A DNA stretch of 64,000 nucleotides from sequence record PZ809289.1; one strand, 5' to 3'. This DNA is from a phage. Both the position numbers and the translations under genes were made by a program. The notes beneath the pieces were generated by a model that was not told the origin of the DNA, made no database searches, and saw nothing but the letters and a program-made list of their open reading frames with translations. This document shows, in pieces, positions 398 to 61,803 of the stretch (within the stretch, counting starts at the first letter, position 1; each line of letters begins with the position of its first letter).

Positions 398-464
398 TTG
401 TTTACAAGGTCTATAGGTGTGATACTATAGACCTATCAAAACAAATGAGTGATTGGAGAATAAA

Positions 465-650
465 ATGAAACGTTGTGAATTAATTAGAAATGTTACTGCA
501 CTGGTCGCCGTTACTGCTTTTGGCTTTAGTATGTTTGCAGGATTCATGCTCGATATGCTTTCAACTTCCGAGAATATAATCTCTTTAGTAGTGGCATTTT
601 TAATTGGTTCAATCTCTTTTGTTATGGATAAAATCTCTAAAGGTGAATAA
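465..650 (+). CDS. small hydrophobic membrane protein
   Basis: ATG 465 six nt after GGAG within promoter-cassette leader; track start 453 is TTG; hydrophobic 61 aa. Confidence 0.5.
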   Translation: MKRCELIRNVTALVAVTAFGFSMFAGFMLDMLSTSENIISLVVAFLIGSISFVMDKISKGE

Positions 651-1057
651 TGAACGTTGAATATTATGTATATGCGGATTATGAAAATAACCCGTCTAAA
701 GATGAAGATAACCGTTTAGGTGTAGATGCTTTTGAATCCCCTTCTGCAGCTTGGCAATGGGTTGAAAGTACTGATATCCCTTATCGTTATATTGAAGTGG
801 TAGACCAAGCAGGAAACAAGTATCCTAAGGAAGCATATGTTCCTTCTGGTAAAGTAAATTTCCTTCTGTTCGCAGGTGACAACTATTACCCACGTGGCGG
901 CTATACCGATTTAATCGCTAAAGCATTTTCTGAAGACGAACTACGTGATATTATTAACGAAAATGAGAAAAAGCCTCGTTACGGTTCTAATCGTTTTGAC
1001 TGTGACTGGTGGCAGATTGTTAATGCTAATACCCATACTATTGTAGACGAGGGTTAA
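650..1057 (+). CDS. hypothetical protein
   Basis: ATGA overlap with preceding gene; 135 aa ORF. Confidence 0.5.
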   Translation: MNVEYYVYADYENNPSKDEDNRLGVDAFESPSAAWQWVESTDIPYRYIEVVDQAGNKYPKEAYVPSGKVNFLLFAGDNYYPRGGYTDLIAKAFSEDELRDIINENEKKPRYGSNRFDCDWWQIVNANTHTIVDEG

Positions 1058-1348
1058 ATGCTATACGTTAAGGTTACTAATCCAGAGAATGGCTATAATT
1101 CAGACCAGGTTGCAGCAGAGCTACTGATTCGCAACTTTGGCAAAGGTGCTGTGCTTGATGTTCAACAGGTTAACATAGGTCGTAGTTCAAGCGATGTTAA
1201 ACTCAAAGTTAACAGCCATCGTTATAATTCTGTTAACTTTACTTTTTATACCGCAACTGAAAACGGATTGGTCGAATATGACATCTTTAAAAATCCTTTG
1301 AAGATTGCTTCTATTAAACTTGATTACATTAATATGTGGCCACAATGA
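1058..1348 (+). CDS. hypothetical protein
   Basis: ATG immediately after preceding stop with GAGGG upstream; 96 aa. Confidence 0.5.
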   Translation: MLYVKVTNPENGYNSDQVAAELLIRNFGKGAVLDVQQVNIGRSSSDVKLKVNSHRYNSVNFTFYTATENGLVEYDIFKNPLKIASIKLDYINMWPQ

Positions 1349-1527
1349 ATCAAATTTGACCAGACTATTCCTAAAAATAGTAATATGCTTTAAGAGTAAT
1401 GTGTTATTATTACTCTAACATTATTAAGTAACCCTCTATTACCAAAGGTTCTTCCCTCAAAGAACCTTTCATAATAGACAAGGTCTATTAATCAAACTTA
1501 CTTTACTTAATTTTATTTGAGGTGTTT

Positions 1528-1794
1528 ATGTTAGTATTAAAATTAGCTTTTTACGACCCAGAAACCAAGACAACAACTACCAAACGTTGTTCTATTTCAT
1601 ATGAATGTCAATTTGGCGAAGTTGAGACTGATGGCGAGCCCTTTATGGCAATTGCCGATAGCACATTCGCTAAACCAAAAATAATTCCACTAGTTAACGC
1701 TGCGGCTTATCTGGTTGCTCCTGAAGAAATGACTTATCATACAATTCAGCACATGGCTAAAGATGATAATGCTCCTGCTGGATTTGTAGTTTGA
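1528..1794 (+). CDS. hypothetical protein
   Basis: ATG 1528 after GAGGTG; ends 5 nt before tRNA; no recognisable motif. Confidence 0.35.
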   Translation: MLVLKLAFYDPETKTTTTKRCSISYECQFGEVETDGEPFMAIADSTFAKPKIIPLVNAAAYLVAPEEMTYHTIQHMAKDDNAPAGFVV

Positions 1795-1799
1795 TTTAA

Positions 1800-1870
1800 G
1801 GCCCTGTAGCTGGACGGTCGAGCGAGCGACTCATAATCGCTGGATGGTGGTTCGATTCCACCCAGGGCCA
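1800..1870 (+). tRNA. tRNA with CAT anticodon (Ile-lysidine type or Met)
   Basis: Cloverleaf by hand folding: acceptor GGCCCTG/CAGGGCC, anticodon stem AGCGA/TCGCT with loop CTCATAA, T-arm GGTGG-TTCGATT-CCACC; CCA not encoded. Confidence 0.75.
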
Positions 1871-1911
1871 TATTTTGAGAACATAAATACTCTTAGAAAT
1901 AGGAGATATTT

Positions 1912-2582: not shown

Positions 2583-2657
2583 GTCCCGCTGGTGTAATGG
2601 ATAGCATACGATCCTTCTAAGTTTGCGGTCCTGGTTCGATCCCAGGGCGGGATACCA
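2583..2657 (+). tRNA. tRNA-Arg (anticodon TCT)
   Basis: Acceptor GTCCCGC/GCGGGAT with encoded CCA, anticodon loop CTTCTAA, T-arm CCTGG-TTCGATC-CCAGG. Confidence 0.8.
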
Positions 2658-3663: not shown

Positions 3664-3693
3664 GGCCCTTCCGAAAGGTTGGGCCTTTTTTTG
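3664..3693 (+). terminator. intrinsic terminator (repeat of the 3039 terminator)
   Basis: Same GGCCCTTCCGAAAGGTTGGGCC hairpin followed by T7. Confidence 0.6.
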
Positions 3694-3716: not shown

Positions 3717-3745
3717 GTTTACTCTTTCGTAGAACATGATACTAT
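3717..3745 (+). promoter_or_regulatory. early promoter cassette (GTTTAC-N17-TACTAT)
   Basis: GTTTAC 3717-3722, TACTAT 3740-3745, conserved AGACCTATCAA downstream. Confidence 0.6.
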
Positions 3746-3780
3746 AGACCTATCAAAACAACAGAGTGAAGGAGAGTAAA

Positions 3781-4044
3781 ATGGATAATTATGGTGAAGT
3801 GTTTAATTTCTTTATGAAATGCGTTCCTGAAGAATTTGGTGCTACTGTTAACGATATTAAAGTTATCGGCCCTGAACACCCGGTGTATGAAACCTATGCA
3901 GTAATGGGTAATGAAGATGGACAGTGGTATACAATTAAAGTTGTGATTAATATGTTCTCAGCTGAAGGTTACGCCAAATCGTCTACCAAAGTTTACCATG
4001 GTAATGATTTTGATGCAGAAAATTATTTCAATAATATGAAATAA
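3781..4044 (+). CDS. hypothetical protein
   Basis: ATG 3781 after GGAGAG; track start 3766 is GTG. Confidence 0.5.
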   Translation: MDNYGEVFNFFMKCVPEEFGATVNDIKVIGPEHPVYETYAVMGNEDGQWYTIKVVINMFSAEGYAKSSTKVYHGNDFDAENYFNNMK

Positions 4045-4047
4045 AAC

Positions 4048-4077
4048 GTTTACATGGGCTCATGATTAAGATATTAT
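4048..4077 (+). promoter_or_regulatory. early promoter with inverted repeat flanking -10
   Basis: GTTTAC 4048-4053, TATTAT 4072-4077, palindrome ATGGGCTCAT...ATGAGCCCAT. Confidence 0.5.
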
Positions 4078-4102
4078 GAGCCCATAATTTGAGGAGAACA
4101 TA

Positions 4103-4501
4103 ATGAATATCGAAGATAAAGAAATGCAAGAGTTGTATAATTCATTAACACCTGAACAACAAAAATATGCCAAAGAACTAGAGAAAGCTCTTACTTTCAA
4201 CTTGGCAAAAACTGATTGGGCCGCTATGTATGAAGAAAAAACTAGATTAGAACTTGAAGCCGTCGAAAGAAATGAATGGATTGTCGAAACCAAGATTTCT
4301 GATGGTGGTTGCTCTGTTGAGGTGTCAGCTGTAGTTAAAGGTACTCATGGTGAAAAATCATGGGGCTGGCATAATGAAGCAAACAAACATATTGTTCTCT
4401 CAACGTCAAAAACTTATGGCCAAAGGGCTCCTGTATCCAAAGCTATTATTAAGCAAGCTCAATGGGAAGCCAATGAAATTTGCCTCGCAAAAATGAAATA
4501 A
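4103..4501 (+). CDS. hypothetical protein
   Basis: SD GAGGAG 7 nt upstream; 132 aa. Confidence 0.55.
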   Translation: MNIEDKEMQELYNSLTPEQQKYAKELEKALTFNLAKTDWAAMYEEKTRLELEAVERNEWIVETKISDGGCSVEVSAVVKGTHGEKSWGWHNEANKHIVLSTSKTYGQRAPVSKAIIKQAQWEANEICLAKMK

Positions 4502-4504: not shown

Positions 4505-4534
4505 GTTTACAAACCTCAGAGGACAGGGTATAAT
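4505..4534 (+). promoter_or_regulatory. early promoter (GTTTAC / TATAAT)
   Basis: GTTTAC 4505-4510, TATAAT 4529-4534 inside palindrome GAGGACA...TGTCCTC. Confidence 0.5.
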
Positions 4535-4577
4535 GTCCTCATGGATTACAAAACGTTAACCAACTGAAGGAAATACT

Positions 4578-5171
4578 ATGAACACTTTAAAGAAAATCGT
4601 TGAATTCATCCGTTCTAAACTGGGTACTGCAATGGCTCAGAACCTGTCAATCGAAGACCAGTATACTAAAGCTGCTTCTACCCTGATTGATAAAATCACT
4701 GAACTCCAGACTGCTCATGTTAAGTCTGTGAATGAAGAAAAACGTATTCGTGCGTTGGCTAATGAAAAAGACCAACTGGCTGCTTCTAAAGAACGTGAAA
4801 TTCGTAAACTGATTGCCGAAGGCGCTGATGTCCAGGTACATGCTAAACTTGGCCTCCTTTATCGTCGTACAGCTACTCAGCTTCGTAAGAAAGCTGATGA
4901 TTATATCGAAATGCGTAATGAAATTAAACTGAAGGTTAAGGAACTTGATGACTCTCGTCAGGAACTGGCTGTTAAGCTCGAGTACATCCGTGAAACTCGT
5001 AATATGGCTGCCCTTGGTATTGCTACTGCCGATGATGTTGTTGAAATCGCTGCACTGACTAAGATTGATATTGAAGACACCCTACTGCGTGTAGAAACGT
5101 TTAAAGGCCCGCAAGTTGGAATGGATACGACTTCTGCCGATATCGACGACTACATTAATTCACTTAAGTAA
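4578..5171 (+). CDS. coiled-coil protein (PspA/IM30-like architecture, speculative)
   Basis: 197 aa, heptad-rich Lys/Glu/Arg sequence throughout; SD GGAAA. Confidence 0.55.
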
Positions 5172-6398: not shown

Positions 6399-6680
6399 AT
6401 GATGAATGATTACCATAAAAATAAAGAGCTGGCTGACGCAGTAAATGATATCCACAAAGCTATTCGTCGTGCTGAGGAAATTGCTGACAAATATGAGACT
6501 CATTTTAATATATACCCTGCTCGCGGTATGGGCGGTGACTATTATTCTCCTGGCGCCTTGAAAGCCGACCTTGCCCACTGGGAAGAATACGGTGAAGCTC
6601 AGTACGCTATTGTAAACCAACATGATTACACTACCAGCCTAGAAAATGGTGGTTGGGTGTCCTCTTCTTCTGAATGTTAA
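6399..6680 (+). CDS. small acidic protein, paralog 2
   Basis: SD AAGGAAA; ends GGWVSSSSEC. Confidence 0.6.
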   Translation: MMNDYHKNKELADAVNDIHKAIRRAEEIADKYETHFNIYPARGMGGDYYSPGALKADLAHWEEYGEAQYAIVNQHDYTTSLENGGWVSSSSEC

Positions 6681-6689
6681 GGAAATAAA

Positions 6690-6902
6690 ATGACTATTGA
6701 TGAAATTGAAAACCAAATCCGTGAATTAGTACGTAAAGGCCAGTCTGTGGCTGACGAAACGGGTGAAGAGTTCCGTGTTTCTGGTCGTGGAGAATACATT
6801 TCTCCAAAGAACCCGGAATATGATGATTACGAATGGGTCCGTGATGACTACGGTATTCCGGAAGGTGAAGGTTTCTGGTTTACATCCTCTATGTCTTGCT
6901 AA
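6690..6902 (+). CDS. small acidic protein, paralog 3
   Basis: SD AAGGAAA; ends GFWFTSSMSC. Confidence 0.6.
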   Translation: MTIDEIENQIRELVRKGQSVADETGEEFRVSGRGEYISPKNPEYDDYEWVRDDYGIPEGEGFWFTSSMSC

Positions 6903-6913
6903 GGTGATAAAAA

Positions 6914-8993: not shown

Positions 8994-9022
8994 GTGTACA
9001 AGGTCTATAGGTGTGATACTAT
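8994..9022 (+). promoter_or_regulatory. early promoter cassette (near-identical copy of the 400-428 cassette)
   Basis: GTGTAC 8994-8999, TACTAT 9017-9022, palindrome AGGTCTATAG/CTATAGACCT. Confidence 0.55.
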
Positions 9023-9059
9023 AGACCTATCAAAACAACAGAGTGAAATGGAGAATAAA

Positions 9060-9272
9060 ATGAAACTTTCTAACCAAGCAATCAACATGTTAAACGAAGT
9101 TCGTGCAGCTGGTGCTAAATGCCTGATGGTTAACACTCGTGACGGTGACCTTCGTCAAGCATTTGGTGAATTGAAATCTGCTGACCTGGTTAAATGTTCA
9201 GTTGGTATTGGTAACGCACTTCGTGTATCCTTATCTCCTAAAGGTAAAATGTACTTTTTCAACAAAAAGTAA
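9060..9272 (+). CDS. hypothetical protein
   Basis: ATG 9060 six nt after GGAG; leader identical to the leader of gene 465-650. Confidence 0.5.
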   Translation: MKLSNQAINMLNEVRAAGAKCLMVNTRDGDLRQAFGELKSADLVKCSVGIGNALRVSLSPKGKMYFFNKK

Positions 9273-11766: not shown

Positions 11767-12151
11767 TGAATTTATCGCAGAGAATGTAATTCCTGCATCT
11801 AAAGAACTTTTGGCAATGTTCGAATCTGAAGAGTTCACTGAAGAACTGAATGAGAATCTGACCCAGGCCACTCCTCAGGTTATTCGCGTTCGTAATGCCC
11901 TTCAGACAGGCATGCAGGCTCGCGTCTCTAAGACTATGAAGCTGGCCTTCACCACTTCTAAAAATGAAGACTACGGTGATGGTATTGCAATGAACACTGG
12001 ACAGTATTATGTTGAGTGGAATGGCGAAACCGGTACTGCTAAGATTCGCCAAACCAGAGCAGCGGGTGGTAAAATGTTGGACATTAAACTGAACGTTAAA
12101 GAGAAAGACGTCGCGGCTTTGTTCAAGAATTGGATGAAGACCTATAAATAA
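11753..12151 (+). CDS. internal-protein-like protein with capsid targeting sequence
   Basis: Starts [11 protein letters not shown]; position of T4 ipIII; start overlaps stop of e. Confidence 0.7.
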
Positions 12152-12180
12152 GTTTACATCTCCTAGAATTGTGATAGTAT
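12143..12180 (+). promoter_or_regulatory. tandem late (TATAAATA) and early (GTTTAC...TAGTAT) promoters
   Basis: TATAAATA 12143-12150 immediately followed by GTTTAC 12152-12157 and a -10-like TAGTAT. Confidence 0.5.
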
Positions 12181-12233
12181 ATCTACAGTTACTTGAACAG
12201 ACCAATTAAAATATTTTCCTTTAAGGAACCCGT

Positions 12234-12830
12234 ATGAAAACGTATAAAGAATTTATCGCCGAAGCTTCTGTAGGAAAGGTCCAAGGCATTAATAAAGATG
12301 AGTGGACTTACAAAGGAAACGGCGTTGACAACCCAGGAAACGGTTTTGACGCTAAAACAGCTCCTATTGAACGGTACTTGGCTACAAAAGCTTCCGACTT
12401 TAAAGCTTTCGCCTGGGAAGGACTTCGCTGGCGTAACGACCTAAATATTGAAGCTGATGGACTTAAATTTGCCCATATCCAAGATGTTGTTGCTAGTAAC
12501 TTGGACGCAGCTTTTGTTAAAGCTGACGGTGACCTTCGTCGCTGGAATTTAAAACTGTTCTCTAAACAGAAAGGTCCTGTATTTGTACCTAAAGCAGGTA
12601 AATGGACTATTGATAATAAATTGGCTAAAGCAGTTAACTTCGCTGGTCTTGAATTTGCCAAGCATAAATCCGCATGGAAAGGTCTTGATGCAATGACTTT
12701 CCGTAAAGAATTTGCCGATGTTATGGCTAAAGGCGGCTTTAAGGCAGAAATAGATACCTCTAAAGGTACGTTTAAAGACGCTAATATTCAGTACGCTTAC
12801 GCCGTTGCTAATGCAGCCCGTGGTAATTAA
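12234..12830 (+). CDS. internal-protein-like protein with capsid targeting sequence
   Basis: Starts MKTYKEFIAEAS; 198 aa, Lys/Ala-rich; between e and denV like T4 ipII/ipIII. Confidence 0.7.
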   Translation: MKTYKEFIAEASVGKVQGINKDEWTYKGNGVDNPGNGFDAKTAPIERYLATKASDFKAFAWEGLRWRNDLNIEADGLKFAHIQDVVASNLDAAFVKADGDLRRWNLKLFSKQKGPVFVPKAGKWTIDNKLAKAVNFAGLEFAKHKSAWKGLDAMTFRKEFADVMAKGGFKAEIDTSKGTFKDANIQYAYAVANAARGN

Positions 12831-12854
12831 TAAAGCCGATACTTGATAAAAGTT

Positions 12855-12883
12855 GTTTACATCTCCTGTAGTCATGATACTAT
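12855..12883 (+). promoter_or_regulatory. early promoter cassette with flanking inverted repeat
   Basis: GTTTAC 12855-12860, TACTAT 12878-12883; ATCTCCTGTAG 12861-12871 pairs with CTACAGGAGAT 12895-12905 (contains SD). Confidence 0.6.
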
Positions 12884-12910
12884 AGACCTATCAACTACAG
12901 GAGATTAAAA

Positions 12911-13318
12911 ATGACTCGTATCAACCTTACCTTAGTATCTGAATTGGCTGACCAACACTTAATGGCTGAATATCGTGAATTACCACGTGTTTTCGGTGCA
13001 GTTCGTGAACGTATTGCCAAAGGGCAAGGCTTCTCTGATATCCCTAAAGACTTCCGCCTTGGTTCAGGGCACGTCAAGTTCTTTTATGACAAAATTGGTT
13101 TTTTGTTCTTGCGACAAAATGCAATAATTGAGGAACTTCTGAAGCGTGGTTACCAGATTCAAAATACCCATGTAGACGTAGCGGATATTCCATTACGGCT
13201 TATGAACGATTTCACTCCAACCGAAGCTGATATAGCTTTAAGCCAAGCTCGTCTGGATGAAAAAATTGCACAGCGTCCTACCTGGTACAAACATTATGGC
13301 AAGGCTATTTACGCTTAA
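12911..13318 (+). CDS. denV: endonuclease V (pyrimidine dimer DNA glycosylase) DenV
   Basis: Starts [32 protein letters not shown], essentially the T4 DenV N-terminus; C-terminal [15 protein letters not shown]. Confidence 0.95.
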
Positions 13319-13361
13319 TTAAATCCGTGATAGAATACTTCTATCAACTTAAGGAATAACA

Positions 13362-13661
13362 ATGAAAACTTATCAAGAATTTATCACAGAAGCCAAAGCT
13401 CCTAAAGCATTTCAAATTGGAGTTCAAGGCAATTTAGACCAAGAATATGTTGATGCTATTGTAGCAAGCCTCGGTAAACAGGGCGTACAAGTCGATTTTG
13501 TTGATTTTACCAAAGGTAATACTTTTAATATTGTTACATCTAAAGGTTCTTTAGCTAAAGTTAAAAAGGCCTTTGGCGTAGCACAAGCATATGAAATCGA
13601 CCACTCCGAATTAGAAAATAAAGGTCGCCAGAACACAATTAGAGGTTCTGGTTCTTTCTAA
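13362..13661 (+). CDS. internal-protein-like protein with capsid targeting sequence
   Basis: Starts MKTYQEFITEA; 99 aa. Confidence 0.65.
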   Translation: MKTYQEFITEAKAPKAFQIGVQGNLDQEYVDAIVASLGKQGVQVDFVDFTKGNTFNIVTSKGSLAKVKKAFGVAQAYEIDHSELENKGRQNTIRGSGSF

Positions 13662-13765
13662 TAAAGGCAAGCCGGCCCTCTCCTCATGAACGTCTAGTCC
13701 TCTGGGTGATGAACCCAAGGATGAATTATGTGCCAAGGATTAGTCCATAACTTAAAGAGTCAAAA

Positions 13766-14125
13766 ATGAAAACATATCAGCAATTTATTACTGAATCTAC
13801 CCAACGTATTAACGAAGCTATGTCGCCTGAACAGTTGGCTAAAGCTAAAGAAGGCCTGAACCCATCTGAAGTTTTTAAAGTTACAGGTAAAGACTTTGCT
13901 TCTATGGCCACTAACCAAAGCCTGGCTAAAGAACTTAAATCTAAATCTAACTTCATTCATGCTACATGGAATGGTGATTCTCTTACTTCAATAAGTGTGT
14001 ACAATAAAAAAGGTCTCCTTAAGAGTTCTTATGGCGCGGATGCCATCCGTGTTTCTAAATCAGATTGGCATAAAAACACTACTAAAGCAGAAAAACCTCA
14101 TAACCCGGCACTAGACCATCTTTAA
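13766..14125 (+). CDS. internal-protein-like protein with capsid targeting sequence
   Basis: Starts MKTYQQFITEST; 119 aa. Confidence 0.65.
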   Translation: MKTYQQFITESTQRINEAMSPEQLAKAKEGLNPSEVFKVTGKDFASMATNQSLAKELKSKSNFIHATWNGDSLTSISVYNKKGLLKSSYGADAIRVSKSDWHKNTTKAEKPHNPALDHL

Positions 14126-14133
14126 GGCTTAAT

Positions 14134-14391
14134 ATGAAAACTTACCAAGAATTTATTACAGAATCCACTTTAGTTTCTAAACGTTGGAATATGATTGTAA
14201 ACGTTAAACCTTCCGGCACTGAAGTTTCTATGGCCGACCCTAATGATGACGAACTTGAGCACGCTTTTAGCTCTAAAGAAACTGACGAGAAAGTGGTTAA
14301 GCAACTGGTTGCTGATGCAGATCAACTTCGTAAAGTAGCAGATGTTGTTAAGCTGTTTACTAAGAAAGGTTTTAAACACGAAGAACGTTAA
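14134..14391 (+). CDS. internal-protein-like protein with capsid targeting sequence
   Basis: Starts MKTYQEFITEST; 85 aa. Confidence 0.65.
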   Translation: MKTYQEFITESTLVSKRWNMIVNVKPSGTEVSMADPNDDELEHAFSSKETDEKVVKQLVADADQLRKVADVVKLFTKKGFKHEER

Positions 14392-14540
14392 TTAGCATTT
14401 TAAATGGGAGCAACCTGGACCTCACAATTCTGTGAGGGACTCCCGCCAACCTGTAATAAGGTCGAGCCCAAGTGCGGTAATGGGTAAATGCAGAAAGGGA
14501 CGAATTAATGTGCCAAGGAACGGCCCTCAAAGGAAATACT

Positions 14541-15851: not shown

Positions 15852-15880
15852 GTTTACATCTCCTGTAGGTATGATACTAT
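15852..15880 (+). promoter_or_regulatory. early promoter cassette with flanking inverted repeat
   Basis: GTTTAC 15852-15857, TACTAT 15875-15880, arms ATCTCCTGTAG / CTACAGGAGAT. Confidence 0.6.
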
Positions 15881-15908
15881 AAACCTATCAACTACAGGAG
15901 ATTACAAA

Positions 15909-16367
15909 ATGTCAGAAATTAATTCAGAAGTATTCATCCGCCGCAACAAATTACGTCGTCAGTTCGAAACCGAATTCCGTGAACTGAATGCGTCCATCAA
16001 AAAAGCCGCCATTAAGAGCGGAGTCCCAGCCTTCTTTATTAAGTACTCTAATCACTTGTTGGACCGTGCTATCCAACGTGAAATCGACGAAAAATACGTT
16101 TTTGCTTTATTCAAGCAACTCCATAACCATGTTAAAGAAATTCATGAATTTTTAATCCAGGAACCTCTACCTGATGTAGAATCCGAAATTGTCCCTGGTA
16201 AAGTGTATCGTCCATTGCGTCTCGAAATTACCGATAAAACCTTATGGCTAGGTATGACAGTAGACCGTAAACATCCTGATAAAGGATACTCATTAAAATG
16301 TCGTATGGCATTTGTTAACTCTAAACGTTTAGAAGGTAAAACCAGCACGAAAGTAATCTATCTTTAA
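15909..16367 (+). CDS. regB: RegB endoribonuclease
   Basis: 152 aa; EVFIRRNKLRRQFETEFR...HLLDRAIQREIDE...RPLRLEITD matches my recollection of T4 RegB; ATG 15909 after GGAG, far downstream of track start. Confidence 0.8.
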   Translation: MSEINSEVFIRRNKLRRQFETEFRELNASIKKAAIKSGVPAFFIKYSNHLLDRAIQREIDEKYVFALFKQLHNHVKEIHEFLIQEPLPDVESEIVPGKVYRPLRLEITDKTLWLGMTVDRKHPDKGYSLKCRMAFVNSKRLEGKTSTKVIYL

Positions 16368-18115: not shown

Positions 18116-18853
18116 ATGGCAAAGGAATTCCATTATAATTACTTGACTGTAATAAAAACCCATAAGGCAAATTATTACTATGTAGGTAAACACTCCACTG
18201 ATAATCTTTCAGACGGGTATTATGGAAGTGGTACGGTAGTTAAAAATATTTGTAAAAAGCATCCTTATAAAACTCGTATATTAGAATTCTTCGAATCTGA
18301 AGAAGAGGCGTATGCCGCCGAAATTCCTTTAGTTGAAAAGGCTAAATTAAAATATGGTAAGCATTCTTTAAATTTTGCTGATGGCGGAAGAGGTAAAAAG
18401 AAAGGAACCAAATTATCTAATTTAACTAAACAGAAAATGTCTAGGTCTAGAAAAGGAGTTAAATGGAGCAAAGCCAGAATAGAAGCTTCTAAATTCACCA
18501 CTTCTAATAAAGGTTTAAACCATTATTCCAATAGAATAGGATTTAGTGATGAGCATAAAGCTAAAATAGGATTAGCCTCTAAAAAATTAAAAGGATTTAA
18601 ACATAGCGCTGAAACCATAGAAAATATGAGTAACGCCAAAAAGGGCAAAAAGAATCCCATGTACGGTAAAAAGGGCGCTATGGCAGGAAAACCTTCTCCT
18701 ATAAGAAACGAATCTTGGAAATTTTACGATGAATTAAAACTCTTATGGGAAGAATCCAATAAGCCTTCAGCATATATGTTTAAAAAGATAGCTATAAGCA
18801 AAGGTTATCCTAATTGCTCTTATAGAGGAGTTGTATTTAAATGGCAAGCTTGA
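18116..18853 (+). CDS. GIY-YIG family homing endonuclease
   Basis: N-terminal YNYLTVIKTHKANYYYVGKHST, C-terminal repeated basic K/G-rich DNA-binding modules; overlaps start of tk. Confidence 0.7.
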   Translation: MAKEFHYNYLTVIKTHKANYYYVGKHSTDNLSDGYYGSGTVVKNICKKHPYKTRILEFFESEEEAYAAEIPLVEKAKLKYGKHSLNFADGGRGKKKGTKLSNLTKQKMSRSRKGVKWSKARIEASKFTTSNKGLNHYSNRIGFSDEHKAKIGLASKKLKGFKHSAETIENMSNAKKGKKNPMYGKKGAMAGKPSPIRNESWKFYDELKLLWEESNKPSAYMFKKIAISKGYPNCSYRGVVFKWQA

Positions 18854-20460: not shown

Positions 20461-20487
20461 GGTCTCACTTCGGTGGGACCTTTTTTC
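20461..20487 (+). terminator. intrinsic terminator
   Basis: GGTCTCAC-TTCG-GTGGGACC followed by TTTTTT. Confidence 0.65.
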
Positions 20488-20495: not shown

Positions 20496-20524
20496 GTTTA
20501 CATCCTCTAGGAACATGATACTAT
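20496..20524 (+). promoter_or_regulatory. early promoter cassette
   Basis: GTTTAC 20496-20501, TACTAT 20519-20524, AGACCTATCAA. Confidence 0.6.
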
Positions 20525-20552
20525 AGACCTATCAACTAATGAGGAGAACAGT

Positions 20553-20789
20553 ATGAAACTTACAAGTACTACGGTTTCATTAGAATATGAAATCAACGGT
20601 CGTATCCTTGAGATTAAGATATTCGACGACCGAAGTATCTTCGCTGATTATCGAGGATACAGAATTCGTCTAGAAAAGGACGAGCTCAAGGAACCGTGGC
20701 TCCTTAAAGACACATTAAAGGGTTGTGGATGTAAACTGAATACTACTCAAGCCCAAGAATTAATTTCTACTATCAACAAATACTGGTGA
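20553..20789 (+). CDS. hypothetical protein
   Basis: SD GAGGAG; 78 aa. Confidence 0.5.
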   Translation: MKLTSTTVSLEYEINGRILEIKIFDDRSIFADYRGYRIRLEKDELKEPWLLKDTLKGCGCKLNTTQAQELISTINKYW

Positions 20790-23343: not shown

Positions 23344-23532
23344 ATGAAGGTCTTTTTATCATATGGAAGACCCCATAAAACCCGACGTTGGTATCTTGAA
23401 GCTGTCTGTAAAGAAACCGGACGTCGAGTCAATATCAAGTACGTGTGCAAACCTACGCCTAAACAGACAAGACAATTTGTTAACTGGGCTATAAATGATA
23501 TACGCTTCCATAATTTTTGGAGCGCAATTTAG
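23344..23532 (+). CDS. small basic protein
   Basis: ATG 23344 after GAAGAAATG; 62 aa; followed by terminator. Confidence 0.4.
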   Translation: MKVFLSYGRPHKTRRWYLEAVCKETGRRVNIKYVCKPTPKQTRQFVNWAINDIRFHNFWSAI

Positions 23533-23554
23533 GAACCTTCGGGTTCCTTTTTTG
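23531..23554 (+). terminator. intrinsic terminator
   Basis: AGGAACC-TTCG-GGTTCCT followed by T-run; identical hairpin recurs at 58538. Confidence 0.65.
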
Positions 23555-23573: not shown

Positions 23574-23602
23574 GTTTACACCTTCGTAGAGCATGTTATT
23601 AT
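23574..23602 (+). promoter_or_regulatory. early promoter cassette
   Basis: GTTTAC 23574-23579, TATTAT 23597-23602. Confidence 0.55.
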
Positions 23603-23639
23603 GGACCTATCAAATCTACTGAGTGAAATGGAGAATATA

Positions 23640-24973: not shown

Positions 24974-25002
24974 GTTTACATCTCCAGTAGAAATGATACT
25001 AT
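24974..25002 (+). promoter_or_regulatory. early promoter cassette with flanking inverted repeat
   Basis: GTTTAC 24974-24979, TACTAT 24997-25002, arms ATCTCCAGTAG / CTACTGGAGG. Confidence 0.6.
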
Positions 25003-25028
25003 AGACCTATCAACTACTGGAGGTTAAC

Positions 25029-27548: not shown

Positions 27549-27605
27549 TGTTTACATCCAAGGATGGATGGAGTATAATCTTTTAAATCTACTGAGGAGA
27601 ATATC

Positions 27606-31539: not shown

Positions 31540-31598
31540 TATTTACTTCCTCTCCTCACGTGTTATAGTCTATCCTATCAACACATGAGGAGAACATT

Positions 31599-32668: not shown

Positions 32669-32736
32669 TTTACAAACTCTTGGGACCAGAGTATAATGGT
32701 CCTACGGATTATAACTTTAAAACTGAGGAAATTATT

Positions 32737-39888: not shown

Positions 39889-40587
39889 ATGAAATTCTCT
39901 AAAGAAACTCTGAACATTCTGAAAAACTTCTCCAGTATTAACCCAGGTATCATGCTTAAGCCTGGTAACACTATTCTAACTCGTTCAGTAACGGGTGCAA
40001 GTTATGGTGAAGCTACTGTAAGCGATACCTTTGATATCGAAGCCGCAATCTATGATTTGAACGGCTTCTTAAGTATTCTGTCATTGGTATCTGATAGTGC
40101 TGAAGTTTCGGTAAGTGAAGACCAAACCACCTTAATTATTAAAGACCAACGTTCAACTATTAAATGGCCTATTGCCGACCCAAGTACAATTGCATTCCCA
40201 AGCAAAGCTATTCCATTCCCGGTGGCTGAAGTTATTTTTGACCTTAAAGCCGAAGATTACCAACAGTTGATGCGTGTGTCCTCTGGATTGAGTATTGATA
40301 CATTTGCTATCACTGTAGACAACGGTAAAATTGTAATCAATGGCTACAAACAAGTTGATGATAAGGACCTGGCACGTCCATTGTATTCCTTAGTGGTTGC
40401 AGACCATGATGGTCCTGAATTCAAATTCATTATCAACAAAACTAATATGAAAATGATGCCTGCCGATTACCATGTATTGTTATGGGCTCGTGGTGAAGGT
40501 CAGGACGCTCGTTTCGCAGCCAAGTTTGAAGGTTCACAAGCTTCTTATGTATTGGCTATGGAAGCAGGCTCAAGCCACTCGTTCTAA
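39889..40587 (+). CDS. 45: sliding clamp gp45
   Basis: MKFSKETLNILKNFSSINPGIMLKPGN...; colinear with T4 gp45 including PIADPSTIAFPSK and FEG...YVLAMEA. Confidence 0.95.
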   Translation: MKFSKETLNILKNFSSINPGIMLKPGNTILTRSVTGASYGEATVSDTFDIEAAIYDLNGFLSILSLVSDSAEVSVSEDQTTLIIKDQRSTIKWPIADPSTIAFPSKAIPFPVAEVIFDLKAEDYQQLMRVSSGLSIDTFAITVDNGKIVINGYKQVDDKDLARPLYSLVVADHDGPEFKFIINKTNMKMMPADYHVLLWARGEGQDARFAAKFEGSQASYVLAMEAGSSHSF

Positions 40588-41165
40588 TGTATATATGTTA
40601 TCATAATACGATAACCAACACTAAAACCAAGTGTGTCTATCATTATTTTGGTAGACACCGTGTTACTGCTGAAGAATACTACGGTACAGGTAAGTTTGTT
40701 AAGAAATGCAAACGAGAAAATGCTATTACTCCAGGTCTTTGGGAGTTTTGTGTTGAAGTTATCCATACAGTGGATACGTTTAAAGAAGCCAAGATTATTG
40801 AAGAAGAGCTTGTTAAAGAAGGCATATCAAAATATGGTATCCTTTGTGTTAATAAGAATCCTGGTGGTGATGGCGGTGTGGATTACCACACCGAAGAATC
40901 TAAACGTAAAATGTCAGAAACTAGAACAGGAAAATCAAGAATATTTTCCGAAAGTCATAAAGAAAATTTAAGTAAACGAGCCAGAAAATACTCTGATGTT
41001 TGGTCCGAACCTGTATATTCAAATCTTAAAACCATTTGGCTGGAAACAGGTATGTTAAAACGCGGACGGTTTAGTACGCTTTTACAAAAATATGGGTATA
41101 ATTATTCTGCGAATGAATTGAATAAAATTGTTAAACATTTTAATGAGGAAAATAATAATGAGTAA
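40587..41165 (+). CDS. GIY-YIG-like homing endonuclease inserted between genes 45 and 44
   Basis: N-terminal YICYHNTITNTKTKCVYHYFGRH, YYGTGKF and GGDGG motifs shared with the segB-like protein; T4 has no gene here. Confidence 0.6.
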   Translation: MYICYHNTITNTKTKCVYHYFGRHRVTAEEYYGTGKFVKKCKRENAITPGLWEFCVEVIHTVDTFKEAKIIEEELVKEGISKYGILCVNKNPGGDGGVDYHTEESKRKMSETRTGKSRIFSESHKENLSKRARKYSDVWSEPVYSNLKTIWLETGMLKRGRFSTLLQKYGYNYSANELNKIVKHFNEENNNE

Positions 41166-46077: not shown

Positions 46078-46139
46078 GTGTTTACATACCACAAGGAACG
46101 TGGTAGTATCCTTCCTATCAACTACATGAGGAAATTACA

Positions 46140-46376
46140 ATGGAAGCTTTAATCGTTAGTGCTGGTGTTTTAGGATTCGGTTCTCTGGTTATTATGTTCA
46201 TCGGTTACTTTTTACCATGGATTCTGGCTCTTCTGCGAGGCACTCGTAGTAATGTAGGAATTTTCTTCCTTAATCTCCTGTTAGGCTGGACGATGATTGG
46301 TTGGGTAGTGGCTTTAATCTGGGCTATCGTCGCTGAACGTAAATCAAACGCACAAATCATTATTGTTAAACAATGA
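46140..46376 (+). CDS. imm: superinfection immunity protein Imm-like
   Basis: 78 aa, two transmembrane helices, GWTMIGWVVALIWA motif; directly downstream of gene 43. Confidence 0.7.
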   Translation: MEALIVSAGVLGFGSLVIMFIGYFLPWILALLRGTRSNVGIFFLNLLLGWTMIGWVVALIWAIVAERKSNAQIIIVKQ

Positions 46377-54225: not shown

Positions 54226-54247
54226 GGAGCTTCGGCTCCTTTTTTGT
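54225..54247 (+). terminator. intrinsic terminator
   Basis: AGGAGC-TTCG-GCTCCT followed by TTTTTT. Confidence 0.65.
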
Positions 54248-54255: not shown

Positions 54256-54284
54256 GTTTACATCTCCTGTAGGTGTGATACTAT
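54256..54284 (+). promoter_or_regulatory. early promoter cassette
   Basis: GTTTAC 54256-54261, TACTAT 54279-54284, AGACCTATCAA. Confidence 0.6.
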
Positions 54285-54308
54285 AGACCTATCAACTTGG
54301 AGAACAAA

Positions 54309-54626
54309 ATGAAAACCATCGACTGTAAAGCAGAATATAAAGTGTATTATCACGGAAGTTGTAGTGTTGCTAATATCGGTAATATGCTTTGTCCTCCTGA
54401 GGAGACAGGAGTTCTGTCTGAAACTGGTCGTAAGAAAAACCTAAATCGTGTGTTCTTTACTGAAGATATTGGTTTGGCTAAGATTTATGCTGGACGTGCA
54501 GCTCGTTCAGTGGGAGGAGAACCCCGTCTTTATCGTGTAATTGCTCCGGTAGATGTGGTTTGTTTAAATGATACTAAAGGCGCTACGGTTTATCATGCTG
54601 AATGGGCCTTCTGTGAGGAAATCTAA
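54309..54626 (+). CDS. hypothetical protein
   Basis: ATG 54309 after GGAGAACAAA; 105 aa. Confidence 0.5.
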   Translation: MKTIDCKAEYKVYYHGSCSVANIGNMLCPPEETGVLSETGRKKNLNRVFFTEDIGLAKIYAGRAARSVGGEPRLYRVIAPVDVVCLNDTKGATVYHAEWAFCEEI

Positions 54627-55025: not shown

Positions 55026-55085
55026 CAGTTTACATCAAAGGGGTAATGTAGTATATTACCCCTATCAACTACCGAGGAGAACATT

Positions 55086-55379
55086 ATGAAAAAGTTATTA
55101 ATCGCAGCAATCCTTACAGTAGCATCATGTGGCACAGCTCCAGTTACGGCTGGATTGGATAAAGACCTTTGTGAATGGTCTATGACTGCAGACCAAGAAT
55201 CGGTTGAACATCAGATTTATGCCGATATCATGAACATCACTAAACGCGACCGCCCTGATATGGCTAAAGAAGTGTCAGACCAATTAGCTTCAGGTGGTGT
55301 TATGCAATATAACCGGAATTTGTATTGTGATGCCAATTTCGATAACAAAAATATCGTTAAAGAGGTGACAGGTGAATAA
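55086..55379 (+). CDS. secreted lipoprotein-like protein (spackle position)
   Basis: 97 aa; signal peptide with ASCG lipobox-like motif; synteny with T4 sp, not confirmed by sequence. Confidence 0.5.
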   Translation: MKKLLIAAILTVASCGTAPVTAGLDKDLCEWSMTADQESVEHQIYADIMNITKRDRPDMAKEVSDQLASGGVMQYNRNLYCDANFDNKNIVKEVTGE

Positions 55380-58537: not shown

Positions 58538-58561
58538 GGAACCTTCGGGTTCCTTTTTTGG
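58538..58561 (+). terminator. intrinsic terminator (same hairpin as 23531)
   Basis: AGGAACC-TTCG-GGTTCCT followed by TTTTTT. Confidence 0.65.
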
Positions 58562-58625
58562 TTTTAAGGGTTTACTTTCTAAGAAGGTTATGTTAAGATG
58601 GTCTTATCTTATAGAGGAGAATGCT

Positions 58626-58835
58626 ATGTTAAATCGTTGGATTAAACCAAATAAAACTTTAGATGAAATTATCGCTAACCACGTATTGAAAAAGTACTTT
58701 TATACGCCTTGGTATACCGAAGTTATTGTCCATTCATTTATGATGCATGAAGACGGTTCTATCGAATTTAATGCCGAAATCCGTCACGAGACTGATGATA
58801 TTGATAAAGTTGAATTTAAACGAGGTTTCCTATGA
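58626..58835 (+). CDS. hypothetical protein
   Basis: ATG 58626 after GGAGAATGCT. Confidence 0.45.
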   Translation: MLNRWIKPNKTLDEIIANHVLKKYFYTPWYTEVIVHSFMMHEDGSIEFNAEIRHETDDIDKVEFKRGFL

Positions 58836-59519: not shown

Positions 59520-59994
59520 ACTCGAATTCTTTGTTCGTGATTCTGCCGGACAAACGCGACCTTATGATGCTACAGTGGGTCTTATCTTTGTCGACAATGG
59601 TACGAATTCTATAACCCAGCTAGAAACACGATTAAAAGATATTAAGCCACCAGAAAATATTCTAATGAAGGCATATCATAATAAAAATGTTGATGTTGCT
59701 GAGGGTTGTCCTTTTAGCCTGGCTGAAGCATTACATATCAAGGGTTATCGCCATCCGGACCCGTATGGCGAAGGAACAATGGACATTTTCTATAAAGATA
59801 CCGATAGAATGTCCAACGAACGTCTTAAAGGTCGTACTTATCTGATTTCCGCTACCGAAGGCCTTATTGAAGTTGAACGTCAGATTTGGAAGCACTTTGA
59901 TATTGGATTGCGCTTTACCATGACTGAAGACGCTATTCGTGATGCTAAGGCGAGAGCTCGTATGTATGGCTATGGTCCTATCGGTGGTTACTAA
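59506..59994 (+). CDS. hypothetical protein
   Basis: SD AAGAGGAAA; 162 aa. Confidence 0.55.
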
Positions 59995-60182
59995 TGGACT
60001 TGTTTGATATGTTTGTCATTCCGGACCCTGAGCCTGAAACAACTCAGGAGCCGCCTGTTGACCTTGTCAACGAACTTGATATGATTATACAGAAGCACGG
60101 TTTTAAGTTGCCTAAAGAGGTCCTTAGTGACCTTGCTTCTTATTACTTAGACCCTCCACCTTGGGCTCCTTGGGTAAAATAA
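59994..60182 (+). CDS. small acidic protein
   Basis: TAATG overlap. Confidence 0.4.
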   Translation: MDLFDMFVIPDPEPETTQEPPVDLVNELDMIIQKHGFKLPKEVLSDLASYYLDPPPWAPWVK

Positions 60183-60415
60183 TGAATTGGCTAACTAATA
60201 TACCTACATCGGCGTTGGATATCGACCGTAAACAGGCTCGTAATGAAATCGAGCAAAAAAATATTCAGGCGAAAGCCCCTAAGATTGAAGCTGAGAAGCC
60301 AGAAACAAAAAGCTCGTATGAATCAAAAAGCTCCTATACTTCATATACCCAATCCTCATTAGGCATGGCTGCTGACATTGCAGTGTTTGGCGTCCCACTT
60401 GGTGTGTTTAAGTAG
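60181..60415 (+). CDS. hypothetical protein
   Basis: ATG 60181 overlapping preceding stop; C-terminal hydrophobic segment. Confidence 0.4.
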
Positions 60416-60467
60416 TTTACACCTCCTCCCTTCATGTTATAATGACCTCTAAATCGCTGGAGGTCAT

Positions 60468-61037
60468 ATGAACATCGAACAAAAATGTCTTTATCAAGAC
60501 CGAATCAATTCCAAATTTTCAAAATCTGAACAAGCCTTGTTAGAGAAATGTCTGGATGCCAAAAAAGACCCTAACTTCCATTACGACCTTGACAAACTGG
60601 TTCGTAAGCATGTTACTTCGGCCGTTCCTGTAGAGCTTTATCGCGGGATTACCGCCAGAGAACTTGAGCAATTAGAGCTCCTTTCAGTAGGATGTCAATG
60701 GTCTCCTGGTCGAGTTACTTCTTTTAGTACACAATACTCTCAGGCTCGTCAGTTTGCAGGGGCATGGGAATATGGAACCAAAACCATTTTAAGTCTCAGG
60801 AATGCACCGTTCATTTTCGACTACTACAATCATGCTATCGACCTTGTTCTTGCTGGGAATGTAGACGCCCTTGAAATTGATGAAACTCGTATTGATCTCT
60901 ATGATATGGTCGAAACTGAATGTGAGTTCATGGTCTCTAGCCAATCGCGATTTGAGATTGTTGCAATCGAAACCGTCAAAAGAGACCCATATGAAATCGA
61001 GTACAAAACAATTCATTTAAAAATGTTGGATTTTTAG
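60468..61037 (+). CDS. ADP-ribosyltransferase (ModA/ModB family)
   Basis: R-S-EXE triad: LYRG, SFSTQ, ECEF; 189 aa; SD GGAGG. Confidence 0.75.
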   Translation: MNIEQKCLYQDRINSKFSKSEQALLEKCLDAKKDPNFHYDLDKLVRKHVTSAVPVELYRGITARELEQLELLSVGCQWSPGRVTSFSTQYSQARQFAGAWEYGTKTILSLRNAPFIFDYYNHAIDLVLAGNVDALEIDETRIDLYDMVETECEFMVSSQSRFEIVAIETVKRDPYEIEYKTIHLKMLDF

Positions 61038-61091
61038 TTTACAGGCAAGGAAGCTTGTGGTACTATCTTTCTATCAACTGAGGAGAATAAT

Positions 61092-61706
61092 ATGTTATAT
61101 CCGAGCCATAAATTAGCAGAATTTATCAACAATGCCAAATGCGATGATTTCCGTGAGAATACTCAGATAGAAATTGATGAAGTGTATTCTGATTTAGAAC
61201 AGAGTACCCTCTGGCAGTGCATGGAAAATAAACCAGATTGTATCCAGGAAACTCTGAACAAAATCATCCGTAAGAACCTGACTTCTGTAGTGCCTGATAA
61301 GCTCTATCGCGGCATATCTAAAAAGACTATGAAGTATCTAGAGTCCACAATGTGTGTAGGTGCGGTAATTGAATTCGACCGCGTGATGAGCTTCTCTAAA
61401 GACTTCAACGTGGCAAGGAATTTCGCATCTTATAACTTCTACGGCACATTTAATATCTTTTGTATTAATGATGCACCATTTGTGTACAATTATCAGGAAG
61501 AAATCTTTAAAATGTTATGTGCTGCGCCCCCTGAAGAGTTCCCAGGAGCATTTCCTGAATCTACCCGTGTAGCAAACTTACAATTAATCAATGATGAAGA
61601 TGAGATGATGTTCCCTGCGGGAACTACGCTGCGCGTAGACTCTATTGAGAGAAATCCTAAATGGAATAATTACACCATTTGGAATCTTTCCGTTCTTTCT
61701 TACTGA
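61092..61706 (+). CDS. ADP-ribosyltransferase (ModA/ModB family), second copy
   Basis: LYRG, SFSKDF, EDEMMF; 204 aa; SD GAGGAG. Confidence 0.75.
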   Translation: MLYPSHKLAEFINNAKCDDFRENTQIEIDEVYSDLEQSTLWQCMENKPDCIQETLNKIIRKNLTSVVPDKLYRGISKKTMKYLESTMCVGAVIEFDRVMSFSKDFNVARNFASYNFYGTFNIFCINDAPFVYNYQEEIFKMLCAAPPEEFPGAFPESTRVANLQLINDEDEMMFPAGTTLRVDSIERNPKWNNYTIWNLSVLSY

Positions 61707-61774
61707 ACCACCCGGTTTAATTGAAAGGCAAAGTCCTTGATTCATTATACCGTCGAAAATTTAAAGCAAAAAGT

Positions 61775-61803
61775 GTTTACTTTACCGAGCAACATGATAC
61801 TAT
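61775..61803 (+). promoter_or_regulatory. early promoter cassette
   Basis: GTTTAC 61775-61780, TACTAT 61798-61803, AGACCTATCAG. Confidence 0.6.

Follow-up and report, generated by a model that had tools for sequence, protein, structure and literature searches.

Early-promoter cassettes of a Dhakavirus T4-type phage and their probable read-through-specific hairpins

The 64,000-nucleotide (nt) stretch of phage DNA analysed here (sequence record PZ809289.1; hereafter the window) contains a promoter-like unit, GTTTAC-N17-TACTAT followed by a leader with a Shine-Dalgarno (SD) sequence, which recurs at many sites between genes and raises the question of what it does beyond starting transcription. 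A sequence-only reading had likened the unit to the promoter-early stem-loops (PeSLs) of T4-type phages and had seen in several copies an inverted repeat around the -10 element, with the SD in its 3' arm. By megablast, the window is closest to Dhakavirus (JS98-like) T4-type phages, with 96-98% identity to WG01, QL01 and LQ5 and 91-92% to JS10 and JS98, and we assign it to the early region of a phage of this group. Our analysis makes it probable that the units are immediate-early promoters of such a phage in a PeSL-type composite form, with hairpins specific to RNA that has read through from upstream.

Searching the window for GTTTAC-N17-TACTAT with at most one mismatch returned 11 plus-strand matches where 0.43 were expected, a count that no shuffle reached; the sequence TACTATAGACCTATCAA, with up to three mismatches allowed, was matched 10 times against 0.32 expected, on the plus strand only. 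A weight matrix built from the 10 canonical copies proved overfitted and recovered only its own seeds; we used instead a relaxed pattern search which, together with the shared CTATCAAC motif and a required SD and start codon, added degenerate copies. The curated set for the window comprises 22 early-promoter cassettes, 10 of them canonical, and none on the minus strand. Every site proposed from the sequence alone is among them: those at 400, 3717, 8994, 12855, 15852, 20496, 24974, 54256 and 61775 stand, the motif search being far above shuffles, as do the variants at 23574 and 46080, and the variant placed at 55027 is real, with its -35 starting at 55028. The copies at 4048, 4505, 12152, 13307, 27550, 31541, 32668, 58570, 60415 and 61037 are additional to that earlier list.

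All cassettes share one layout, consisting of an A/T-rich upstream stretch, a GTTTAC -35, a spacer of 17-18 nt that mostly ends in TGn, a TACTAT or TATAAT -10, a discriminator, ATCAAC and a leader. The 22 nt upstream of the -35 are 72% A+T and 39% A, against 61% and 32% window-wide; TGn precedes the -10 in 16 of the 22; the start predicted 7 nt after the -10 falls on an A in 19, typically the A of ATCAAC; and leaders run from 18 to 47 nt, mostly 18-24 nt. Directly downstream of every cassette (22/22) lie an SD and a start codon, mostly of T4 early-gene orthologues, and the genes served in this way include trna.4, e.8, e.6, ipIII, denV, regB, nrdC.x, 55.2, imm, sp, mrh.2, modB, modA and srd, at which T4 also has promoters. 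The sites thus have what marks a T4-type early (sigma-70) promoter, namely the -35, the spacer, the -10, an A-rich UP-like stretch and a position upstream of early genes. Likeness to the T4 early promoters (Hinton 2010, PMC2988021; Nolan 2006, PMC1524935) extends to GTTTAC, TACTAT, the TGn-extended -10, the A-rich upstream element, the CTATCAAC start motif and, at denV, the promoter core and hairpin arms; between the -10 and the start the Dhakavirus consensus is AGACCT, whereas many T4 promoters have ACAACT. The conservation beyond what sigma-70 requires, on which the sequence-only reading had remarked, is real, but it is a known property of T4 early promoters (PMC2988021). The replication-gene block at 33.0-54.2 kb, 33% of the window, holds only 1 of the 22 cassettes (binomial p = 0.0017), and the cassettes therefore share the preference of PeSLs for hyperplastic regions.

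We folded each unit twice, as read-through RNA and as locally initiated RNA, and compared the folds with controls in which the upstream part or only the spacer was shuffled; dinucleotide shuffles supplied z-scores for the energies in kcal/mol. Twelve of the 22 read-through cassettes folded far better than shuffled controls, with spacer-shuffle z below -2. The cassettes are given below, the first coordinate being the start of the -35; paired values after "SD unpaired" are the predicted probabilities for read-through RNA and for the local transcript, in that order.

400-467, plus strand: cassette of trna.4; -10 at 423-428, predicted start at 435, SD GGAGAATAAAA
407-416 and 425-434, plus strand: arms AGGTCTATAG and CTATAGACCT of the tight trna.4 hairpin; -16.5 kcal/mol, z = -3.45
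3717-3783, plus strand: cassette of e.8; weak spacer-SD pairing of CTCTTTC with GAAGGAG, one G-U; z = -0.7; SD unpaired 0.28, 0.91
4048-4105, plus strand: cassette of a 132-aa open reading frame (ORF); tight 13-bp hairpin ATGGGCTCATGAT / ATTATGAGCCCAT around the -10; -20.1 kcal/mol, z = -5.5
4505-4580, plus strand: cassette of e.6; hairpin GAGGAC / GTCCTC around TATAAT; z = -2.5
8994-9062, plus strand: cassette with -35 GTGTAC; same hairpin as the cassette at 400; z = -4.8
12152-12236, plus strand: cassette of ipIII, -10 TAGTAT; no significant hairpin, z = -0.2
12855-12913, plus strand: cassette of denV, SD type; arms ATCTCCTGTAG at 12861-12871 and CTACAGGAGAT at 12895-12905; -20.7 kcal/mol, z = -6.2; SD unpaired 0.12, 0.43
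13307-13364, plus strand: degenerate cassette (ATTTAC, TAGAAT, CTATCAAC) of an internal-head-protein gene; z = -1.1
15852-15911, plus strand: cassette of regB, SD type; arms ATCTCCTGTAG at 15858-15868 and CTACAGGAGAT at 15892-15902; -18.9 kcal/mol, z = -4.8; SD unpaired 0.22, 0.55
20496-20555, plus strand: cassette of a 78-aa ORF (at 20553); weak SD-type pairing TCCTC / GAGGA; z = -1.8; SD unpaired 0.15, 0.75
23574-23642, plus strand: variant cassette of nrdC.10, -10 TATTAT; no significant hairpin, z = 0.6
24974-25031, plus strand: cassette of nrdC.8, SD type; arms ATCTCCAGTAG / CTACTGGAGGT; -19.3 kcal/mol, z = -5.3; SD unpaired 0.01, 0.59
27550-27608, plus strand: cassette of nrdC.4 (TATAAT); modest structure, z = -2.1
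31541-31601, plus strand: cassette of a 60-aa 55.6-like ORF (ATTTAC, TATAGT), SD type; arms TCTCCTCACGTGT / ACACATGAGGAGA; -21.1 kcal/mol, z = -5.7; SD unpaired 0.12, 0.62
32668-32739, plus strand: cassette of 55.2; tight hairpin GGGACC / GGTCCT around TATAAT; z = -2.4
46080-46142, plus strand: variant cassette of imm, the sole one in the replication-gene core; z = -2.5
54256-54311, plus strand: cassette of the ORF preceding dmd; modest pairing, z = -1.7
55028-55088, plus strand: variant cassette of sp (spackle); tight hairpin GGGGTAATGTA / TATATTACCCC; z = -3.0, or -1.7 on whole-sequence shuffles
58570-58628, plus strand: cassette of mrh.2, -10 TAAGAT; no significant hairpin, z = 0.6
60415-60470, plus strand: cassette of modB; 5' arm in the -10/discriminator, ATGACCTC, 3' arm from the SD through the start codon, GGAGGTCAT; -14.3 kcal/mol, z = -3.8; smaller drop in SD unpaired, 0.35, 0.58
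61037-61094, plus strand: cassette of modA; z = -1.9
61775-61846, plus strand: cassette of srd; long 34-nt leader, no GGAG, no significant hairpin

Two geometries account for the structured copies. In the SD type, the helix joins the spacer to a part of the leader that includes the SD (12855, 15852, 24974 and 31541, and weakly 20496 and 3717), and in a variant of it at 60415 the -10/discriminator pairs with the SD through the AUG; among the spacer-pairing copies the SD is predicted to be unpaired with a probability of 0.01-0.28 in read-through RNA versus 0.43-0.91 when the transcript is local. Tight-type copies (400, 8994, 4048, 4505, 32668 and 55028) have the -10 in the loop and a free SD. 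Occlusion of the SD in read-through RNA is thus predicted for about 7 of the 22 cassettes, so that its placement in the 3' arm, proposed from the sequence, applies to about a third of the copies, the other structured ones being tight. The proposed inverted repeat ATCTCCTGTAG / CTACAGGAGAT does lie at 12861/12895, and its second copy is at 15858/15892 and not, as first given, 15891; the nrdC.8 cassette has a covarying inverted repeat, ATCTCCAGTAG / CTACTGGAG, at 24980/25014. The arms are predicted to pair as expected, the read-through folds of the denV, regB, nrdC.8 and 31541 cassettes having energies between -18.9 and -21.1 kcal/mol (dinucleotide-shuffle z from -4.8 to -6.2). For the local leaders the prediction is an absence of structure, with -1.6 kcal/mol at denV, -1.4 kcal/mol at regB and z-scores close to 0.

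Every hairpin has its 5' arm ahead of the predicted start, as the sequence-only reading had supposed, so only RNA arriving from upstream would be able to form the helix; we infer this restriction from the geometry of the cassettes and standard sigma-70 spacing. Structured cassettes from five genomes (n = 48) divide into 26 of the SD type and 22 of the tight type, and tight helices end at a median position of 0 relative to the predicted start. None of the hairpins of the window cassettes has a U-run after it, ATCAAAAC or ATCAACTA following instead, and they are therefore not canonical terminators. Such terminators are present in the window, several of them immediately ahead of a cassette:

3664-3692, plus strand: intrinsic terminator just upstream of the cassette at 3717; GGCCCTTCCGAAAGGTTGGGCC followed by T7
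20461-20486, plus strand: intrinsic terminator just upstream of the cassette at 20496
23532-23553, plus strand: intrinsic terminator just upstream of the cassette at 23574
54226-54245, plus strand: intrinsic terminator just upstream of the cassette at 54256
58538-58559, plus strand: intrinsic terminator just upstream of the cassette at 58570

Cassettes with a terminator just upstream have weak hairpins (median z of -0.95 versus -2.44; p = 0.0036), and in the window z falls below -2 in 1 of 6 such cassettes versus 11 of 16 without one. Hairpins and canonical terminators appear to substitute for each other, which suggests that the job of the hairpin matters only when upstream RNA reads in. A compact and different solution is seen in 346-378 kb phage contigs carrying a denV relative (L062-L065), where terminator and promoter overlap upstream of that gene, the TTGAC -35 lying inside the stem of a canonical terminator, GGGTTGACTTCGGTCAGCCCTTTTT, after which comes TATAAT.

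Separately, all canonical cassettes (e.g. 12875-12893) have an invariant start-site motif, TATCA, that can pair with the extended -10 TGATA, and in the predicted read-through structure this pairing makes up the inner helix of 5 bp; T4 has TGGTA, giving a G-U pair. This inner helix may help conserve CTATCAAC, an effect that is inseparable from shared ancestry.

Comparison of orthologous cassettes bears on whether the pairing itself is maintained. Across 98 distinct cassettes from the window, JS10, JS98, WG01 and T4, the mean spacer-shuffle z was -2.36, and 49% fell below -2. Arms at the same gene pair through different letters: trna.4 has AGGTCTATAG / CTATAGACCT in the window and GGGCTTTAG / CTATAGCCC in JS10 and JS98, while a WG01 paralogue carries ATAGGGTA / TACCCTAT; the arms of sp are GGGGTAA / TTACCCC in the window, GGTCTAT / ATAGACC in JS10 and GGTCTAT / ATGGACC, with a G-U pair, in WG01; and those of e.8 are CTCTTTC / GAAGGAG in the window and CTCCTT / AAGGAG in JS98. 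The nrdC.8 arms of the window are set apart from those of denV and regB by two changes that compensate each other (CCAGTAG / CTACTGG versus CCTGTAG / CTACAGG). T4 denV has the same arms, ATCTCCTGTAG / CTACAGGAGA, and the same promoter core, and differs in the spacer and post-SD leader, while the T4 arms read TTCCTCTTGACTG / CAGTTAAGAGGAG at regB, GTTCCTC / GAGGAAC at nrdC.8 and GATAGCTTC / GGAGGCTATC at modB. T4 dexA is also of the SD type; the T4 ipI, ipII and ipIII promoters have tight hairpins around the -10, and T4 position 7215 has GGGACC / GGTCCC in the same spacer context as the 55.2 cassette of the window.

The pattern extends to regB loci from IMG/VR, which have different arms in six lineages, and to denV loci, which show at least 12 arm variants in two geometries (spacer with SD, and -10/discriminator with SD through AUG). 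The SD-to-AUG region of denV covaries with the discriminator, and in 24 denV cassettes the median probability of an unpaired SD is 0.24 in read-through RNA versus 0.64 in local RNA (p = 1.8e-5, which like the other pooled p-values is optimistic, the sampled phages being related and not independent). Covariation is described here from per-lineage helices; MAFFT alignments of the denV, regB and nrdC.8 cassettes set the 3' arms out of register. Judged by these comparisons, the pairing is under selection, for which the diversity of arm sequences is a stronger argument than the p-values, and the design with the SD in the 3' arm is kept, with compensatory change, from T4 to Dhakavirus and beyond.

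The sequence-only reading had also singled out the GGAG leaders as potential targets of RegB, whose gene is itself cassette-driven and lies where that reading had placed it:

15909-16367, plus strand: regB, encoding the endoribonuclease that cuts GGAG; Pfam REGB_T4, E = 4.7e-69; syntenic with the annotated JS10 regB

A GGAG SD precedes 16 of 22 cassette genes versus 10 of 113 other genes (p = 1e-9, from crude gene calls). The consensus for RegB with S1, GGAGRAYARAA, combines GGA(G) with an A-rich tract (Durand 2006, PMC1702504), and the cassette SDs fit it with a mean of 9.6 out of 11, nine of them scoring at least 10, a score that none of the other genes reaches; the regB leader itself carries a RegB-type site. 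By prediction, these GGAG SDs are free of pairing in local transcripts. RegB requires a single-stranded target, and RNA structure inhibits it (PMC3014915), so the SD-type helix would shield the site in read-through RNA; the sites share GGAG and the A-rich tract with RegB/S1 targets and differ in being, by prediction, double-stranded in the read-through RNA of SD-type cassettes. From this we infer that the helix would block both ribosome binding and RegB cleavage there.

Taken as a mechanism, the spacer or the -10/discriminator would pair with downstream sequence such that a hairpin forms only in RNA read through from an upstream promoter. In SD-type copies (denV, regB, nrdC.8, the 55.6-like ORF and modB, and weakly e.8 and the ORF at 20553) this hairpin would bury the SD, which is also the RegB site; the gene would be translated, and later inactivated by RegB, only from the transcript of its own promoter, and long transcripts would cross it untranslated and uncut. 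In tight copies, whose hairpin stops at the predicted start with the SD outside it, the role is most likely at the RNA level, as an attenuator or an RNA-stability barrier in place of a canonical terminator. With 50-70 nt of common sequence, the cassettes may in addition act occasionally as homology patches for the gain, loss and swapping of genes. A broader version, in which many T-even-like immediate-early promoters, those of T4 included, carry an anti-SD in the spacer or discriminator as a general promoter-embedded translation insulator, kept by compensatory change at denV, regB, nrdC.8 and modB, is tentative, and we would put it somewhat short of an even chance.

Several known systems resemble the cassettes. 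The PeSL was defined from RB49 and phi1 (Arbiol 2010, PMC2839356): a strong early promoter is combined with a stem-loop whose place within the unit varies, in most cases falling between the -35 and -10 or covering the -10, and an SD with its start codon closes the unit. Plastic regions are enriched for PeSLs, copies of which recombine, and the same paper mentions PeSL-like sequences in JS98 near gene 43. The window cassettes match this description, as had been proposed from the sequence, in the A/T-rich stretch, the sigma-70-type early promoter, the variable stem-loop straddling the -10, the SD and start codon, the setting in plastic regions and individual recombination events between copies. 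RB49 PeSLs have TTGACA/TATAAT and GGGG/CCCC stems, in contrast to GTTTAC/TACTAT and sequence-variable stems in the window; and the PeSL paper treats the stem-loop as a terminator, without the words 'translation' or 'ribosome', whereas here about half of the structured copies use the SD as their 3' arm. The concept was later extended to T4/PST and KVP40/nt-1 (Comeau 2014, PMC4122927). The T4/PST elements share with the window the promoter TTTACW-N17-TAYWAT and the phage subfamily, as do the T-even internal-protein-locus elements, which Arbiol, citing Repoila 1994, calls analogues built on T4 early promoters (PMC2839356), and the tight hairpins of ipI, ipII and ipIII are a further likeness; the T4/PST stem-loops lie just upstream of the promoter (PMC4122927), whereas the window helices lie within and downstream of it.

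A functional parallel is provided by T4 e, soc, 49 and I-TevI, in which a promoter sits inside an SD-sequestering hairpin: long transcripts mask the SD or AUG, and RNA started at the internal promoter, without the 5' arm, is translated (PMC3014915). The predicted SD/AUG helix and the local transcript free of the 5' arm are found in the window as well. The late-class internal promoter (TATAAATA), which in the T4 genes delays expression, is not; the window has an early sigma-70 promoter whose own spacer or discriminator is the anti-SD. The design works like this family and is not a member of it. The post-transcriptional review lists only e, soc, 49 and I-TevI, with late promoters, together with homing-endonuclease genes (PMC3014915), and an early promoter with an SD-occluding spacer of its own is not described there, in the PeSL paper or in the T4 transcription review, though older papers may note single cases. 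The cassette is therefore of a known kind, a T4-type early promoter in PeSL form, and its variant with the SD in the 3' arm combines two known T4 themes.

This interpretation calls for caution, as a number of points weigh against it. Ten of the 22 cassettes have no significant hairpin, the start sites are those predicted by standard sigma-70 geometry, the phages compared are not independent, the tight hairpins have no U-tract after them, and the one RB49 stem-loop that was tested acted as a transcription terminator and not as a translational device (Arbiol 2010, PMC2839356). The sense strand folds more stably than the antisense strand (p = 3.5e-4 overall; T4 by itself shows a mean difference of 3.4 kcal/mol, p = 3e-4), but this raw gap could reflect base composition and the controlled preference is weaker (p = 0.016 overall, 0.02 for T4 and 0.37 for the window), leaving evidence for RNA rather than DNA as the relevant strand only moderate. 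A role in RNA is nonetheless favoured because about half of the structured cassettes place the 3' arm on the SD and because hairpins are weak where a canonical terminator lies immediately upstream.

One may postulate, following the original PeSL model, that the hairpins are attenuators or terminators of upstream transcripts and that SD pairing is incidental. We consider this unlikely, although it survives better than the other alternatives. In a transcriptional fusion, an RB49 PeSL stem-loop matched the rrnB T1 terminator in its reduction of downstream lacZ expression (PMC2839356), and it is this experiment that keeps a terminator under consideration when the absence of any U-run makes it a poor fit to the sequence; the mutual substitution of hairpins and canonical terminators and the free SD of the tight hairpins agree with it too. 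It leaves aside, however, that SD-type helices enclose loops of at least 20 nt, that the 3' arm sits on the SD in 26 of 48 structured cassettes, and that the SD-AUG region of denV covaries with the discriminator, which termination would not need.

Recombination has also marked the history of the cassettes. The cassettes at 400 and 8994, described early on as near-identical, have 68 identical positions in a 73-column alignment, and the suggestion that such copies recombine is borne out by real crossovers within cassettes. In JS10, which lacks e.8, cassettes 3717 and 4048 are fused at the SD into one hybrid; the ipIII module has been transposed with respect to a neighbouring ORF, the junctions being at 12151-12164 and 12844-12855, where the -35 elements of cassettes 12152 and 12855 lie; in cassette 23574 a crossover within the spacer has replaced the upstream half relative to JS10, JS98 and WG01; and in WG01 two copies of the 400-type cassette enclose an additional gene. 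The denV protein of the window (gene at 12911-13318) is 93% identical to that of another T4-like lineage (loci L036-L047) and about 70% to the JS98 type, whereas the cassette ahead of it is of the JS98/T4 type, with breakpoints at 12849 and 12908; the allele appears to have been swapped behind a conserved cassette, with a crossover at the SD/ATG.

Breakpoints relative to five genomes fall at gene junctions of any kind in 69 of 73 cases. As to the idea that cassettes mark module boundaries, breakpoints occur at 10 of the 22 cassette junctions; statistically these are not special, with 44 of 111 other junctions affected (odds ratio 1.27, p = 0.39). Restricting the count to junctions whose gap is 40 nt or more gave no excess either (odds ratio 0.6), nor did a comparison with three genomes (odds ratio 1.7, p = 0.19). 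The recombination role is backed by single events and not by a statistical excess over other junctions. Two plus-strand ORFs, 18116-18853 and 40587-41165, are missing from JS10, JS98 and WG01 precisely at the junctions where they lie; a NUMOD3 motif is present in the first (E = 3.9e-13), and that in the second is weak and falls short of the Pfam gathering cut-off (E = 0.006; 17 bits, cut-off 20.4). The first, and possibly the second, would be free-standing homing-endonuclease genes, which would explain some gene-content breakpoints without a promoter cassette. At 6878-6905, GTTTACATCCTCTATG at the end of an ORF resembles a cassette -35 and spacer without a proper -10 (the TAAGGT there is the SD of the next gene); it may be a degraded half cassette as described for PeSLs, and a breakpoint lies nearby, at 6653-6695.

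That the inverted repeats act instead in DNA, where a cruciform or single-stranded DNA hairpin would serve as a recombination signal, or as the target of a structure-specific nuclease driving modular shuffling, has in our view little probability. The crossovers within cassettes, antisense z-scores nearly as strong as sense in the window, and an RB49 mini-circle junction that mapped to the loop of a stem-loop, for which a DNA-binding protein was speculated (Arbiol 2010, PMC2839356), all point in that direction, but cassette junctions are not more breakpoint-prone than others and the crossovers fall at the -35, the spacer or the SD/ATG, not in the stem. G-U pairs occur in sense helices, T4 has a sense-strand bias, 11-bp arms around a 23-nt loop are on general reasoning poor cruciform formers, and a role in DNA gives no reason for the 3' arm to be the SD.

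Less probable still is that the hairpins have no selected function and reflect recent duplication or gene conversion, together with a pyrimidine-rich spacer facing a purine-rich SD by chance. Near-identical cassettes do exist (400/8994; 12855/15852), and TCTCC / GGAGA complementarity could arise trivially; yet spacer shuffles that keep composition still give z down to -7, pairing beyond the SD core covaries (TGTAG / CTACA, AGTAG / CTACT, GTTTG / CAAAC, CAAG / CTTG), and the helix recurs at the same genes across lineages with unrelated promoter sequences. We reject as scarcely credible the reading of the repeat as an operator through which a dimeric phage protein would switch early promoters off: the -10 does lie at the centre of symmetry and T4 early-promoter shut-off is not fully understood (PMC3014915), but arm sequence, length and position vary among cassettes and orthologues with complementarity kept, the signature of a structure and not of a sequence-specific binding site.

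The cassettes are set in a region whose plus strand carries essentially all long ORFs and corresponds to the strand of the T4 early genes. By JS10 and WG01 annotation, the gene order runs from the tRNA/trna.4 region through e.x, ipIII, denV, regB, tk, nrdC.x and 55.x to 47, 46, 45, 44, 62, regA, 43, imm, uvsX and 41, and then to dmd, sp, 61, 56, soc, mrh, modB, modA, srd and dda. An Rfam scan of the whole window found two tRNAs only and no match at any cassette:

1800-1870, plus strand: tRNA-Met (CAT)
2583-2657, plus strand: tRNA-Arg (TCT)

Gene content in this tRNA region is unlike that of JS10, JS98 and WG01, and alignment blocks break at 1811-1870, 2577 and 2722-2992. Elsewhere, two unusually G+C-rich, structured-looking intergenic stretches (13661-13766 and 14391-14508) surround ORFs at 13766-14125 and 14134-14391, neither of which has a Pfam match, and a segment of about 730 nt (13715-14446) is missing in JS10 and JS98; a group I intron was suspected at 13.6-14.5 kb, where there is no Rfam match even at E = 1.

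If hairpins of this kind do form in read-through RNA only, they would explain how early genes keep separate schedules in a dense region with a promoter every 1-3 kb and few terminators. regB and denV would each receive one short burst of synthesis, and the long transcripts made for downstream genes would pass over them untranslated and protected from RegB. The analysis tempers the PeSL recombination model, as cassettes crossed over no more often than ordinary junctions in five genome comparisons, and it gives PeSL-type stem-loops, so far discussed only as terminators or recombination sites, a testable function.

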